DNA of 64,000 nucleotides, from NCBI GenBank assembly GCA_964016885.1, contig OZ024748.1, positions 45,508,001-45,572,000 of the forward strand, read 5' to 3'. The notes beneath the pieces are model-generated. The model saw only the letters and a list, made by a program, of their open reading frames with translations. It was not told where the DNA came from and ran no database searches. The stretch is from Eledone cirrhosa. Its lineage: Eukaryota. The position numbers were made by a program, and so were the translations under genes. Each line of letters starts with the position of its first letter. Positions within the stretch are counted from its first letter, which is position 1. Below, piece by piece: positions 4,172-54,257 of the stretch.

Positions 4172-5228
4172 TTATTGTTCATTTAACTTGGGTTGGAATT
4201 TATCAATAAAATTCTTTTCTTTAATTTTTCTCTTGATTTCACTTGGGCTGTGTAGTTTGTAGAATGGAAATATTATAAATATTTTCTGTCCTCATGTTGC
4301 TAGATGGTTACTCAGGGGTATATGACGGACATTTGGGTCTCTGATTTGCTGTCAGTGCACCCGTGCACGTTCCGATAGTGCATTTCCAGATTGACCGACA
4401 TATAGTTCTTCACAATTCGGGCATTTAATGCAGTAAATTAGATTTCTGCTTTTGCAGTTCATATTTGCATTTGGGAATATTTTTCCAGTTTTTGTGTTCA
4501 TATATTGACAAGTATGTATGAACATGTGCCACATCGACTATCATTGCATTTAGATACAGTGAATGATTGGTCTTTGTTGTTAAGGTCAAACTTTGCTTTT
4601 GTTAGTAACTGCTTCAAATTTTTCGGCTCTCTTTTACTAAGATTCAAAGTTCGGTCTGTGACTAAACCTTTTAATTCATTACTTTGAGCAATGATTGGCA
4701 GGTTTGCTCTGGCAGTGTTGAAGATATTCTGGTGACATGGGTTGTGTGTCATTATAAATGGTATGACCAGTTCTTGGTTTCTTCTTCCTTGGGTTGTCCT
4801 AAGTTGTTGTATAGGTATTTTTATAACCCGCTGTGCCATTTTCTATAAGTAGGGTAATTTTGTTTCAGCAAAAATTCTCTCAGTTCTGTTAGGCGTTTGT
4901 TCCTGGTATTCGTATCTTCTACAATGGCACAAATTCTTCTGACTAGGCAATATGGGATGTTGCGTTTTGTATGAGGTGGATGACACGACTTAAAATTCAG
5001 ATATTGATGGGTGTCTGTGTGTTTATAGTATATATCCGTGGTAATGGTGGTGTCGTTTTTGATTACCATTATATCTGGGAATGGTAATTTGGTACTAGTC
5101 ATCTCTTTTGTAAATTGGAGAGATGGGTGTAGGTTATTCAGGAGGATATTGAACTCATCCAGAGTATCTAGAGATTCTTTCCAGATGATGAAACAATCGT
5201 CAATGTATCTCTTCCAAGACTTTTCAAT
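4172..5228 (-). pseudogene. PLE reverse transcriptase (motif C to thumb) plus GIY-YIG endonuclease, frameshifted
   Basis: WKRYIDDCFIIW, LPFPDIMV...TDIYYKHTDTHQYLNFKSCHPPHTKRNIPY, CNDSRCGTC linker, NLIYCIKCPNCEELYVGQSGNALSERARVH, ending FQPKLNEQ*; several frameshifts and stops. Confidence 0.92.
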
Positions 5229-6010
5229 GAGTAGCAGTCACTAATGTCGAATTGTATGAAGTTATATGTTTCTCTATTGCTTATTTTGCTGAACCAGTCT
5301 ATTGCTTCGTTAGTGTTACCCCATAGCTTAATTACTAGTTTGTCCTTAATTTGTTCGATTACTCTATCTAGTATATACTTTCTAATTCTACCGATATCCG
5401 ACTTAGATGGGTATATTAATCTAATTGTGGGGTCTGTTTCGAAATTATTTTTGTGATCTTTTAGGCTAAATGTGGGCTTACAAGGAGTTAAAGGCTCGGT
5501 TCTATCAGATATTTTCATTTTTTTTTACTATGCTAAGTCCTTCCTTATTAATGCTAGTGAGTGCAGATTCAATTGTTTTTTTTGTGCAATTCTCGGCGTA
5601 TAAAATTATTGTATGTATTGAGGCTCATGGTGTATACGTTTGATGTTTTGTCCGCTTTTACTATAATACCGTTGGTGTTGCGTAGTTTTTTTTAGTAGTG
5701 CATTGATGTCCTTTTGCAATTTGTTGTGATGTGTCATTTTTAAAAATTTAGTTCCACTTATCATGTTCATGAGGTCGAGTTCGAAGGCATCGAGCTGGGG
5801 GTTATTTGGTGGATTTTTGCAGGATTTGAATCCGTATTTTTTCCTGGTAAATTCCCCCGTGTTATTAGCGAGTCCCTTGTCGTAATGGTATGCTTTCCAT
5901 CGGATTCGACGGATGAAATCATTAGTACGTTGTATCATGCCGAGTGTGTAGTCCTTGTTTATAGGTAGTGGTATGTTTTTCAGTGACATGCCTATGTGGT
6001 GCTTTTCCAT
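5229..6010 (-). pseudogene. N-terminal and RT-fingers part of a second PLE (B, probably Hydra-clade type)
   Basis: MSLKNIPLP...FIRRIRWKAYHY...YGFKS...FELDL, SLKDHKNNF...RLIYPSKSDIGRIRKYILD...WGNTNEAIDWF...FIQFDISDCY; frameshifts. Clade assignment is from recalled motifs only. Confidence 0.8.
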
Positions 6011-6051
6011 GTTAGTGCCGTGCGTTAAGGTTGTTGCTCAACCTAGTGGGA

Positions 6052-7294: not shown

Positions 7295-7344
7295 GTTATT
7301 ATACATATTTCAGAGGTACAACAGTACGTCCTCATCAGACAAAA
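7295..7344 (-). ncRNA. Hammerhead ribozyme, intact core (family G)
   Basis: ttttgt-CTGATGA-ggacgtactgttgtacctct-GAAA-tatgta-TA-ataa. Confidence 0.75.
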
Positions 7345-8372: not shown

Positions 8373-8511
8373 ATATATATATGTATATATATATACATGT
8401 ATATGAATATATATATATATGTATATGTATGTATATATGATTATTGAATATATATATATAAGTATATATATATATATATATATTGTGTTGTTGCAAATGT
8501 GATATATATAT

Positions 8512-8960
8512 AAAATGAAGAATTAAACATAGAAGCCAGGACTATCCATCATCAGTGGTCTATTAGCCATCATAAGTATTTCATCGCATTAAAGACCAGA
8601 TATCTCAGGCTAGCGCAATACAATAACTAAAATAAGTTATTGGGATAAAGAGAATTGGGTGGAGAAAGAGAGACAGGTAAACAAACACGAATGGTGAGGC
8701 AACGTAAAGAGAGGAAAAAATGAGAAAATCAAGTCACTGATTCATTTGAACATAAGAACTTGCGAATATTGACGAGAAGACGAAAGACACATCTTGGCCG
8801 TGCGAGGTCTCTCTTTCTCCACCCAATTCTTTTTATCCCAATAACTTATTTTTGTTATCGTATCGCGCTAGCCTGAGGTTTCTGGAAGAAATACCTATGA
8901 TGGCTAGTAGACCACTGAAGATGGATAGTCCTGGCTTCTATTTCTAATTCTTCATTTTAT
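8512..8960. mobile_element. Inverted-repeat insertion in (TA)n (family E) with a rearranged hammerhead in each arm
   Basis: Arms ~8512-8673 and ~8808-8960 are reverse complements; the minus strand is homologous to 44280-44700. Confidence 0.8.
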
Positions 8961-21060: not shown

Positions 21061-21190
21061 GGAGCCTGCATGCATTTGGTGCAGAGCGTGGGTTTGATGT
21101 GTTCAATAATGTGGGTGTATATATATATATATACATATATAAATGAAAAGTATAGAAAAATATATATGTATATATATATATGTATACATA

Positions 21191-21264
<74 letters not shown>

Positions 21265-21285
21265 TATATACATATATATATATAC

Positions 21286-21332
<47 letters not shown>

Positions 21333-21341
21333 TATATACAT

Positions 21342-21407
<66 letters not shown>

Positions 21408-21436
21408 GCATATATACATATATATATAAATATATA

Positions 21437-21490
<54 letters not shown>

Positions 21491-21493
<3 letters not shown>

Positions 21494-21663
21494 TTAATAT
21501 AGATGAGATTCTACAGGACTAGAACTGTTTCATTCTTTCATGATTTCTAAAGAATGAAACAGTTCTAGTCCTGTAGAATCTCATCTATATTAAAACTTTT
21601 ATACTCTGCAATGTATTGAGTACCTTACTTACTGTGGTTACCTCCGATTCAACCCGGAATAAC

Positions 21664-21664
<1 letters not shown>
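21491..21664. mobile_element. Family B palindromic element (inverted twin of 17848-18021)
   Basis: Reverse complement with about one mismatch. Confidence 0.85.
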
Positions 21665-21697
<33 letters not shown>

Positions 21698-21711
21698 GTT
21701 ATATATATACG

Positions 21712-21747
<36 letters not shown>

Positions 21748-21748
21748 G

Positions 21749-21792
<44 letters not shown>

Positions 21793-21824
21793 CGTACATA
21801 TATATATATATATATATATATACG

Positions 21825-21866
<42 letters not shown>

Positions 21867-21925
21867 GTTATATATATATATATATATATATACGTTATAT
21901 ATATATATATATATATATATATAAC

Positions 21926-21987
<62 letters not shown>

Positions 21988-22019
21988 GTTATATATATAT
22001 ATATATATATATATATACG

Positions 22020-22079
<60 letters not shown>

Positions 22080-25459: not shown

Positions 25460-25490
<31 letters not shown>

Positions 25491-25492
<2 letters not shown>

Positions 25493-25906
25493 GGATCAAA
25501 AGATGGTTAAAAGAGTTCCACGTATTTTATTATGCGCATTTCAAAAACAAATATCATCATGCAATAACATTTTCGTTTTTGTCAGATAAAATAGGGAGAC
25601 ATGATATGAAGGTTAAAACACACTTGTGAATAGTGTAGTTTTAAATCAACATATGTTGATTTAAAACTACACTATTCACAAGTGTGTTTTAACCTTCATA
25701 TCATGTCTCCCTATTTTATCTGACAAAAACGCAAATGTTATTGCATGATGATATTTGTTTTTGAAATGCGCATAATAAAATACGTGGAACTCTTTTAACC
25801 ATCCTTTGATCTTATATATTATGTATACTCCAGTCCTACAAAGTGTAGAGTGCTACTTATCCGATATCTGCATTGCTTTATTGTACTACAATAAAACTCA
25901 CCTCCT
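25491..25906. mobile_element. Near-perfect ~320-bp palindrome plus tail (family I) with two hammerheads
   Basis: Centre at ~25652; ttttat-CTGACAA-long stem II-GAAA-tgcgca-TA-ataaaa at 25714-25780 (+) and 25525-25591 (-). Confidence 0.88.
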
Positions 25907-40572: not shown

Positions 40573-40799
40573 AATATTAATTCAAAATATTAACAAATAT
40601 AGACATTCGTGTGATCAAGTATATATTATTATACATATTTCAGAGGTACTGAGCTATTTACAACAGTACGTCCTCATCAGATACAATTTTATCTGATGAG
40701 GACGTACTGTTGTAAATAGCTCAGTACCTCTTAAATATGTATAATAAAATATACTTGATCACACGAATGTCTATATTTGTTAATATTTTGAATTAATAT
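40573..40799. mobile_element. Family G ~225-bp palindrome with two back-to-back hammerheads
   Basis: Centre at ~40686; the minus arm has an intact CTGATGA...GAAA, the plus arm has GAAA->TAAA. Confidence 0.88.
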
Positions 40800-42264: not shown

Positions 42265-42267
42265 TAT

Positions 42268-43460
42268 AAATGGAAAAAATGAAACGAAAGTTCATTTCTC
42301 ACTCATAGTAAGGCAGTTACTTAAATGTAAGTATGTATGTATACGTACATACATATATGTATACATACGTACAGTAGTATGCATATATATACATACATGT
42401 ATACAGACGTACAGTAGTATGTACATATATAAATACATGTACACATATATATATACGTACGTATCGGTTTACCGAACATTTATTATAATGTTCGGTTTGT
42501 TTGTAAACAAACAGCCCGAATTAAGCCGTACAGTGTTTAACAACCATCGTTGCCCATTTGTTCAACACTGACAAAGGAACGATGTACTAGTTTCAAGCTT
42601 ATTAGCTATCGTCAGCATCCTATACCTTCCTGCCAGATGATTGAAGGTCGGAAAATATATACTTTCCTTATGCATATTAACGGCTGAGTATATTAACGAT
42701 AGCTAATAACTTGAAACTAGTACATCGTTCCTTTGTCAGTGTTGAACAAAAGGGCAACGATGGTTACTAAACACTGTACGGCTTAATTCGGGCTGTTTGT
42801 ATACAAACAAACCGAACATTATAATAAATGTTCGGTAAACCGATACGTACGTATATATATATGTGTACATGTATGTATATATGTACATACTACTGTAAGT
42901 CTGTATACATGTATGAATATATATGCATACTACTGTACGTATGTATATATATATATATGTATGTACGTATACATACATACTTACATTTAAGTAACTGCCA
43001 TACTAAGAGTGAGAAATGAAATTTCGTTTCATTTTTTCCATTTATCGTTTTCGGTCCGCCCGGCCGACTAAACTCACTCGATATACAAATTAGGCTGCTC
43101 AGCCGTTAATATACATAAAGAAAGTATATACTTTCCGACGTTCAATCATCTGGCAGGAAGGTATAGGATGCTGACGATAGCCAATAAGCTTGAAACTAGT
43201 ACATCGTTCCTTTGTCAGTGTTGAACAAAAGGGCAACGATGGTTGCTAAACACTGTACGGCTTAATTCGGGCTGTTTGTTTACAAACAAACCGAACATTA
43301 TAATAAATGTTCGGTAAACCGATACGTACATATATATATATATATGTGTACATGTATGTATATATGTACATACTACTGTACGTCTGTATACATGTATGTA
43401 TATATATGCATACTACTGTACGTCTGTATACATATATGTATGTACGTATACATACATACT

Positions 43461-44078: not shown

Positions 44079-44100
44079 ATATATATTCACACATATATAT

Positions 44101-44734
44101 TTTCCTCCGCTGTGACCCGTCTTTTTCATTCTTACTGCTTCCTCTTTCTCTGTATCTCTCACTTCCTTTTACCCCCTCTACCAGTCACTCTCTCTGTTAG
44201 CCTCTTCCTCACCTTTCCCTCACTCACTCTCTGCTACTCCTTCTCCCACTTCTTCCCGTTTAACCTGTGCGAAATTCTTTCCTCACGCACACTTTGACCA
44301 GGTTGGTTGTTCCTTTATTTTCTCTCTCGTCTACGATTTCACAGAACTTATGTTCACCAAATTCAGGGACTAGATCCCTTCTTCCTCCCGTTTGACCTGT
44401 GCGAAATTCTTTCCTTGCTCACATTTCGACTAGGTTTGATGGTCTTTATTCTCTCTCGTCCACGATTTCACAGAACTCATATTTCATCGATTTCTGGGAC
44501 TTGACTCCTTCTTCCTCACTTTTCGTTGCATTACCATCTTTGATTGTTTACAGTCTCGCTCGTTCCCCTTATTTACGTGTCCCAACGACTTTCTTTAGCC
44601 GTTGCTCGCACCAACCGGAGGTATATGGTCTTTAAAGCGATGAAATACCAATGAAGGTTGGAAGATCACTGATGAAGGACTAAATTTATTCATATGTAAC
44701 CCATTTGCAACCACGCAGCACGTCTTGTTTTCCT

Positions 44735-44738
<4 letters not shown>
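44101..44738 (+). mobile_element. Family E element with internal ~125-bp tandem duplication
   Basis: Pyrimidine-rich leader, duplicated cctgtgcgaaattctttcct...cacagaact block, homologous to the minus strand of 8520-8810. Confidence 0.72.
44611..44681 (+). ncRNA. Candidate non-circularly permuted hammerhead ribozyme with kink-turn
   Basis: ccaacc-gGA-ggta-TA-tggtc-tttaaagcgat-GAAA-tacc-aatGAa-ggttgg-aa-gatca-CTGATGA-aggac; helices covary with the copies at 8.5-8.9 kb. Confidence 0.68.
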
Positions 44739-54096: not shown

Positions 54097-54109
54097 AAAT
54101 ATGATAATA

Positions 54110-54179
54110 ATGATGGCTGCGCGTTGCAAATGGTGGTGCATATGAAAAAGTAAGTCCTTCATCAGTGACCCTCCAACCG
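54110..54179 (-). mobile_element. 5'-truncated family E fragment
   Basis: ggttgg-ag-ggtca-CTGATGA-aggacttac...catttgcaac matches 44656-44720. Confidence 0.75.

Positions 54180-54257
<78 letters not shown>

Follow-up and report, generated by a model that had tools for sequence, protein, structure and literature searches.

A decayed inverted pair of Penelope-type repeat copies in Eledone cirrhosa and the predicted split hammerhead motif of its family

The window analysed here is a stretch of 64,000 nt from the Eledone cirrhosa genome (assembly GCA_964016885.1, contig OZ024748.1, positions 45,508,001 to 45,572,000 of the forward strand), and coordinates are given relative to its first letter. 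Positions 8486-8958 hold a single Penelope-type insertion in (TA)n, composed of a tailed, 5'-truncated copy on the minus strand and an inverted, shorter copy on the plus strand (Table 1). An earlier note, made from the letters alone, had described this place as two copies of a permuted hammerhead on the arms of an inverted-repeat insertion starting at 8512. The inverted pair is indeed there, but its arms are unequal 5'-truncated copies rather than terminal inverted repeats, and the 3' tail of the minus copy lies outside the start given in that note. The tail-out arrangement in (TA)n, which had been likened to insertions of Penelope-like elements (PLEs), held for both 3' ends of the pair.

Table 1. 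Features of the repeat copies and their motifs in the window.
Position	Strand	Feature	Remarks
8486..8805	-	Primary 5'-truncated subfamily A copy	With 3' tail; ends in (TA)n
8486..8511	-	3' tail	Minus arm only
8542..8647	-	Whole minus-arm motif	Y5, Z hairpin, stem II 5' strand, kink-turn helix, S, G, C, Y3
8549..8560	-	Block C	GACCA (stem I 5' strand) and CUGAUGA
8563..8587	-	Block G and kink-turn	GCGA (stem II 3'), U, GAAA, TACT (stem III 5'), bulge TAT, GA, U, GGCTAA
8594..8604	-	Block S	GATA (stem III 3'), UC, TGGTC (stem I 3')
between 8599 and 8598	-	Predicted cut, minus arm	Placed by analogy with hammerheads
8605..8618	-	Upstream strands	TTGC (gives stem II), CTAGCC (kink-turn helix), TGA (kink-turn)
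8620..8647	-	Z hairpin and 5' strand of closing helix Y	Partner is GGATA after CUGAUGA
8806..8958	+	Inverted, shorter, tail-less 5'-truncated subfamily A copy	
8868..8921	+	Damaged plus-arm motif	11-nt deletion; A16.2 changed to U; CUGAAGA
44096..44735	+	Full subfamily B monomer	97-99% identical to best 40 relatives
44577-44682	+	Intact subfamily B motif	Predicted cut after 44625
54108..54180	-	Subfamily C 3' fragment	40/40 scored matches 100% identical; 699-792-nt tandem arrays elsewhere

The strings quoted for the two arms were found as given. On the minus arm, CTAGCC (8613-8608) is followed by TGA, GATA, TC (8600-8599), TGGTC and GAAA (8582-8579), and then by TACT, TATGAT, GGCTAA, GACCA and CTGATGA (8555-8549); the plus arm runs from CTAGCC at 8868 to CTGAAGA at 8915-8921, with 11 nt deleted in between. 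With it went the distal strand of stem I, the linker and one half of the 3' strand of stem II. The minus arm keeps every core base, has one mismatch and one wobble in stem III and is mismatched at the end of the kink-turn helix. Within the shared part, the minus arm departs from the majority of 25 family copies by about 8 substitutions; for the plus arm the number is about 4, besides its deletion. The changes are private to each arm and one subfamily variant is common to both, which fits a single insertion event followed by independent decay; it is likely that one event left both arms and that they decayed afterwards. The same majority reads ggta/tacc, the pairing that had been restored from a consensus of the arms, although the two arms alone are insufficient to settle it. 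Complementarity between the arms is 92% across 84 and 79 nt. An RNA reading through the locus on either strand is predicted to form a hairpin of about -249 kcal/mol. Such a hairpin would bury both motifs, and the two copies are therefore probably inactive. The locus itself is just a decayed pair; the finding is the wider repeat family.

Searching the 3.0-Gb genome for GAAA-N7-GA-N14-CTGATGA gave 20,880 matches, compared to 54 for the reversed control pattern, so the occurrence of the motif is not a matter of chance. A variant of the pattern that excludes the main subfamilies matched 3,350 times, against 24 for its control. DNA searches with the three copies in the window yielded 2225, 1657 and 1057 first-look candidates for subfamilies A (the 8-kb locus), B (the copy at 44 kb) and C (the copy at 54 kb), respectively. 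Among the 40 scored in each search, identity was about 93-95% for A, 97-99% for B and 100% for C. Judged from sequence, the three subfamilies would be of falling age in this order, B and C being young. The 8-kb locus aligns with 44509-44679 at 72% over 175 nt, and a match of 85% joins 54116-54178 to the 44-kb copy. The copy at 54 kb, formerly taken as a truncated fourth copy able to pair with TGGTC, does hold a further instance of the motif, but represents a third, very young subfamily of its own with TGGCC rather than TGGTC as the stem I strand. Both this strand and the stem III pairing GGCA/TGCC of subfamily C are compensatory.

The monomers are non-coding and often tandem, measuring 574-575 nt in A, 516-652 nt in B and 699-792 nt in C. 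Tandem neighbours were seen at 2/30 A, 11/30 B and 12/20 C loci (25/80 in total) and inverted neighbours, with varying junctions, at 10/30, 7/30 and 5/20 (22/80 in total), in a sample in which some loci overlap one array and one is the 8486-8958 locus. The 5' ends of family copies are variable, and the 3' ends form two groups some 40 nt apart, which in A lie about 40 and 80 nt past CUGAUGA. The family has the hallmarks of Penelope-like insertion, namely 5' truncation, tandem and inverted copies, a tail at one end and a microsatellite target, together with a feature of non-LTR retrozymes, tandem non-coding units with a single predicted ribozyme each. An internal segment with a conserved GACCTGTGCGAAATTCTTTCC hairpin, located at 44249-44523 in the window and present in the A, B and C monomers, is preserved across the subfamilies and duplicated in the B and C monomers. 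An Rfam scan of the window gave no hammerhead among the best 150 of 325 rows, in which only microsatellite matches to miRNA models appeared.

Reading from its 5' end, the motif comprises Y5, the Z hairpin, X5 (4 nt), a single nucleotide, NC5 (6 nt), the kink-turn strand (3 nt), the stem III 3' strand (4 nt) and UH. The stem I 3' strand (5 nt), 6 nt, X3 (4 nt), N, GAAA, the stem III 5' strand, a 3-nt bulge, GA and N follow, and the motif ends with NC3, 2 nt, the stem I 5' strand, CUGAUGA, N and Y3. The permuted hammerhead named in the earlier note was recognised in a non-circular S-G-C block order with core bases kept and helices that covary, and its kink-turn in a bulge of 3 nt and the G.A and A.G pairs that come after it, with a helix on either side. 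Positions are numbered here by the hammerhead and kink-turn schemes (U16.1, H17, A1n, G2n etc.). For the alignment, 173 distinct segments were reduced to 111 with at least 14 of 19 pairs (62 were dropped, many of them truncated) and these to 28 clusters, whose representatives were aligned except for three with non-element upstream DNA, leaving 25. The hammerhead core of CUGANGA, GAAA and UH was found, with U16.1 in 108/111 segments and H17 other than G in 110/111; A1n of the kink-turn was kept in 108/111 and G2n in 90/111 (U in 17). CUGANGA and GAAA were part of the search pattern, as was the GA of the bulged strand for divergent families, whereas U16.1, H17 and A1n were not imposed.

The 25 representatives lean toward structure, since each had to show at least 14 of 19 pairs. 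In them, 89% of cells are paired, compared with 27-48% in slid controls, and changes on both sides are seen in 17 of 21 pairs. We repeated the count on 136 of the 173 segments (49 clusters), chosen by linker sequence alone with pairing ignored. The paired fraction in this set was 0.62 for the stem II helix (X), 0.73 for the kink-turn helix (NC), 0.70 for stem III and 0.84 for stem I, against 0.18-0.52 when slid. The single 10.1-11.1 pair reached 0.80, which does not clearly exceed its slid controls (up to 0.77), and one subfamily lacks it; A or U often replaces C at position 11.1. Helices Y and Z, aligned in 15 representatives, were paired in 86% of cells, and 7 of their 13 pairs change on both sides. 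These alignments showed covariation in six helices (stems I, II and III, the kink-turn helix, Y and Z) around core bases that are kept.

The stem II helix that abuts GAAA draws 4-5 bp from the upstream strand, and 3 of 4 pairs change on both sides; its X5/X3 variants are TCGC/GCGA, TTGC/GCAA, ACGC/GCGT and GTGC/GCAC. X5, which lies upstream of the predicted cleavage site, is the partner of the strand before GAAA, and Y5 that of the bases after CUGAUGA, while the base directly after CUGAUGA pairs with the one before GAAA in 20/25 representatives. Stem II would then consist of one pair from after CUGAUGA and four from the upstream strand, or be wholly upstream. The latter is illustrated by the L150/L192 subfamily, where GGCGC/GCGCC abuts GAAA and an A stands after CUGAUGA, so that the core is opened directly after A9; a plain 3-nt bulge takes the place of the kink-turn there.

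We then compared the conservation of the motif with that of its surroundings. Between the A and B majorities, core and kink-turn are identical at 14/14 positions, stems at 33/38, the 5' flank at 84/143 and the 3' flank at 20/56; between A and C the corresponding figures are 14/14, 29/38, 70/142 and 21/55. Across nine subfamilies, the core was identical in 396/396 cells (10 of its 11 positions being imposed by the pattern), stems in 57% and flanks in 42-44%, the flank figures resting on majorities that are poor for old families. The earlier note had proposed that the idea would fail if the motif were conserved no better than its flanks; in the A/B and A/C majorities it is better kept. Its remark that the flanks align only loosely with the 44-kb copy, with core, kink-turn and pairings retained, agrees with these counts, and the selection on structure in master elements that it suggested is borne out by a constant core, covarying stems and diverging flanks.

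The S-G-C order differs from the cyclic C-G-S order of types I, II and III. It is the order of type SGC, known from HRIMA-1 and its variants, in which the stem II 5' strand lies within 0-1 nt of CUGAUGA and whose descriptors require CGAAA (PMC10085705, here and below as far as its consulted sections go). Eckert et al. 2023 took block C, that is CUGANGA with its stem II strand, as uninterruptible, and their descriptors demand contiguity; SGC and CSG monomers cleave in vitro, and the SGC tested needs stem II (PMC10085705). The motif shares with type SGC the order in which cleavage site, GAAA and CUGANGA follow one another, every core base, the short linker joining stem I with stem II and a pseudoknotted core. 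It differs in that at most one pair of stem II follows CUGANGA directly, the 5' strand being mostly or wholly upstream, and in the kink-turn on stem III and helices Y and Z. Formally, it corresponds to a type CSG chain that is opened anew inside block C, the break falling between CUGAUGA and the 5' strand of stem II.

A second comparison is with the non-LTR retrozymes, described in the consulted parts of PMC7229834 and bioRxiv 10.64898/2026.07.22.740005. The repeat resembles them in its non-coding tandem monomers, the one hammerhead per unit, its thousands of copies and its relation to PLEs. Retrozymes, however, carry type I hammerheads, which the repeat does not, mostly in 150-450-nt units with demonstrated circular RNA, whereas the repeat has a non-circular permutation and units of 570-790 nt, and is known here from DNA alone. 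Eight of nine Xenopus retrozymes showed no cleavage in vitro (Li et al. 2026, bioRxiv 10.64898/2026.07.22.740005). In the open-access literature, permuted hammerheads were found described neither for Naiads nor for animal genomes, and no tested precedent was found for a split core opened at A9/10.1 by helices. What appears to be new is the split, non-circular variant; the ribozyme class and the kind of element that carries it are both known.

Among PLEs, Naiads have been reported without canonical hammerheads, eight of them, including Octopus and Euprymna elements, being marked 'HHR_half_core' (Craig et al. 2021, PMC8557442, in the sections and supplement consulted). The same source describes 5' truncation, partial tandems, an inverted 5'-truncated copy and a 30-40-bp tail at one end as PLE anatomy, and (TA)n as the target of Naiads. 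The repeat shares with Naiads the (TA)n targeting, 5' truncation, tandem and inverted copies and tail at one end, and differs in having no ORF; its likeness to the published Naiad consensi was judged by eye, not by DNA alignment. About a dozen of the 54 consensi were read in this way, around search matches. The 3' ends of Naiad_Obim and Naiad_Ovul have the same order, the kink-turn, an upstream 5-bp stem II and a similar Z hairpin. Three near-identical Acropora Naiads and four or five further records display the split form with a bulged stem III, and three Nippostrongylus (nematode) Naiads with three further records appear as type CSG.

The check proposed in the earlier note, a search for longer copies linked to a PLE ORF, gave none inside this genome but succeeded in metagenome contigs. 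There, a scan with a Naiad reverse transcriptase (RT) motif found 120 loci, 65 of which had at least 500 nt downstream. The split form or type CSG lay downstream in two of the 65 (L255 and L294), and in none of the 65 for antisense and reversed controls. L255 combines a Naiad-type RT with the split hammerhead form about 70 nt past the stop, and L294 has a perfect type CSG behind an intact 1046-aa EN-RT ORF. The other 63 loci, many from one data set and with broken ORFs, were without the motif. When all 120 loci were scanned more widely, two further matches came up, both loose and long-range, and were taken as chance. The motif belongs to a subset of Naiads, and that of the repeat has likely descended from the 3' end of a Naiad retrotransposon. 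At L255:605-2365 (minus strand), the RT is in frame with a C-terminal ubiquitin hydrolase (Pfam UCH, E 2e-32), followed by the split hammerhead; this was the only domain named by Pfam on the PLE proteins. The intact Naiad ORF at L294:831-3968 (minus strand) is followed in its 3' UTR by a type-CSG hammerhead of 6, 8 and 4 pairs, a type previously known from two sequences only.

Within this genome, a Naiad RT protein query gave 5765 candidates, of which 150 were scored. The best ~20 of these are decayed Naiad-like RT relics, many with stops, and had no motif within 1.5 kb; an intact Naiad was not found among the 150. One group of ancient relics (L346-L365) shares a long 3' region, likewise with no motif within 1.5 kb. 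The two matches to a Naiad RT pattern were due to chance and lay antisense to another LINE, L161 as a DNA query found an unrelated repeat, and a 23-nt motif from the Octopus Naiad end had no match in this genome. No PLE ORF was found upstream of 29 old CCAT-type copies and in 15 extended regions. The intact PLE ORFs here have C-terminal endonucleases and belong to other clades, one family having a canonical minimal hammerhead, and none of them shares its 3' end with the repeat. PLE relics from the window matched three loci by tblastn, and no consistent link emerged. Broken Penelope-like ORF pieces lie at 4498-6037 (minus strand), with RT, thumb and Cys-rich linker recognised by eye and no Pfam match. 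Given the youth of B and C, there is either an intact Naiad that the search missed or a different PLE working in trans, and the present mobiliser may not be a Naiad. A candidate mobiliser in trans is a young PLE family (L380, L384-L386, L388) that has a long ORF, a C-terminal GIY-YIG-like end and a long 3' region rich in C and A, and whose terminal repeat includes a minimal hammerhead.

Taken together, we hold it to be probable that the locus arose by head-to-head insertion of a non-coding repeat of Penelope type and has since decayed, and that the masters of this repeat carry a covarying motif of stem II strand, S, G and C, predicted to be a self-cleaving ribozyme that folds in cis and likely to stem from a Naiad 3' end. 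The kink-turn (or a bulge of 3 nt or more in relatives) would bend stem III and return the chain from GAAA to stem I, and helices Y and Z would close the opened point into a further junction. Tandem copies would be transcribed and cut after UH into unit-length RNAs, which may be ligated to circles, as in the type I retrozymes described in the consulted part of PMC7229834. A PLE reverse transcriptase/endonuclease acting in trans would prime at a fixed site 40-85 nt beyond CUGAUGA and insert 5'-truncated, tandem or inverted copies into (TA)n.

Were the 5' ends of some templates at the cut, inverted copies would be expected to break off at that point. Head-to-head pairs whose junctions lie within 17 nt were sought by a pattern, which matched 22 loci, compared to 5 for a control pattern; in each of the 22, one arm or both contained element sequence. 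Scored with a degenerate prefix, the longer arm ends at the predicted cut or a single base past it in 11/22 and continues through it in three; uniform-breakpoint nulls simulated for this analysis expected 16-26% (p 0.0002-0.012). A stricter first scoring with family strings, in which several loci were mis-assigned to subfamily, gave 7/22 and was not significant (p 0.06 and 0.24), and 10 of the 11 stops are readable one base further. Among unselected copies, 7/220 5' ends fall at the predicted cut and most copies run through. The fold-back stops give a hint of cleavage in vivo. With more reserve, we incline to the wider view that non-circularly permuted hammerheads drive many Naiads, and the non-coding elements derived from them, across the invertebrate phyla, that these hammerheads include a four-strand form in which the catalytic core is open between CUGAUGA and stem II and a kink-turn and an additional junction close it, that the ~20,000 copies here cut and circularise in vivo, and that fold-backs record the cut.

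Other readings were weighed against this one. The fold might be real but no longer cut, being kept near the 3' end as an RNA signal for the PLE reverse transcriptase. That the motif always lies 40-85 nt from a fixed 3' end, that most copies run through the cut site and that eight of nine Xenopus retrozymes did not cleave in vitro (consulted parts of bioRxiv 10.64898/2026.07.22.740005) would suit such a role. We nevertheless consider it unlikely, as stem sequences change while the catalytic bases and the UH rule persist, and fold-back arms stop at the predicted cut. The strands could also assemble in trans or across tandem units as a domain-swapped dimer, in the manner of minimal PLE hammerheads, for which dimeric cleavage is known. 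No knotted monomer would then be needed, tandem arrays are common, and three mutually crossing helices with linkers of 1, 2 and 6 nt are demanding for a single chain. Against this, stem III has considerable length and is no palindrome, the bend and the short linkers of fixed size are understandable for a fold in cis, autonomous Naiads end in single-copy forms, and SGC and CSG monomers cleave in vitro (PMC10085705, consulted sections), making a dimer distinctly unlikely.

It is very unlikely that the motif is an ordinary type-SGC hammerhead with a one-pair stem II and a merely peripheral upstream helix. The pair between the bases after CUGAUGA and before GAAA, present in most representatives, speaks for it, but is impossible in L150/L192, L255 and the published Octopus and Acropora Naiads, where the base before GAAA pairs upstream; moreover, the SGC tested needs stem II (PMC10085705, consulted sections). 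Highly improbable, finally, is a functional inverted repeat, either a MITE or a hairpin-RNA gene, despite the complementarity of the arms and their predicted fold. The arms are unequal 5'-truncated pieces of one monomer with different private changes, and inverted neighbours occur with varying junctions in more than a quarter of the sampled loci. The terminal inverted repeats of a fixed element, as in a MITE, are lacking, and both the MITE and the functional hairpin were rejected.

If the preferred reading of a split, cis-folding hammerhead is true, non-circularly permuted ribozymes would move from rare unassigned contigs to high copy number in an animal genome, and the published assumption of a contiguous CUGANGA and stem II would be broken. 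It would also explain the apparent absence of hammerheads in Naiads, standard descriptors being blind to such an order. The natural subfamilies would serve as ready compensatory variants, and the CSG and split forms within one element clade would offer a possible route for the origin of such permutations.

The window also contains three canonical-order hammerhead-like copies (CUGACGA, short stem II, GAAA) of another repeat family at 43171 (+), 50593 (+) and 42615 (-). Canonical-order or partial minimal hammerhead-like motifs in PLE-type terminal repeats occur at 7338 (-), 33323 (-), 40680/40693 and 36697 (-). A 97% palindrome spans 40574-40799, and other long palindromic (TA)n insertions, as expected of PLE 5' inversions, lie at 25477-25827, 42266-43045 and 21118-22044.
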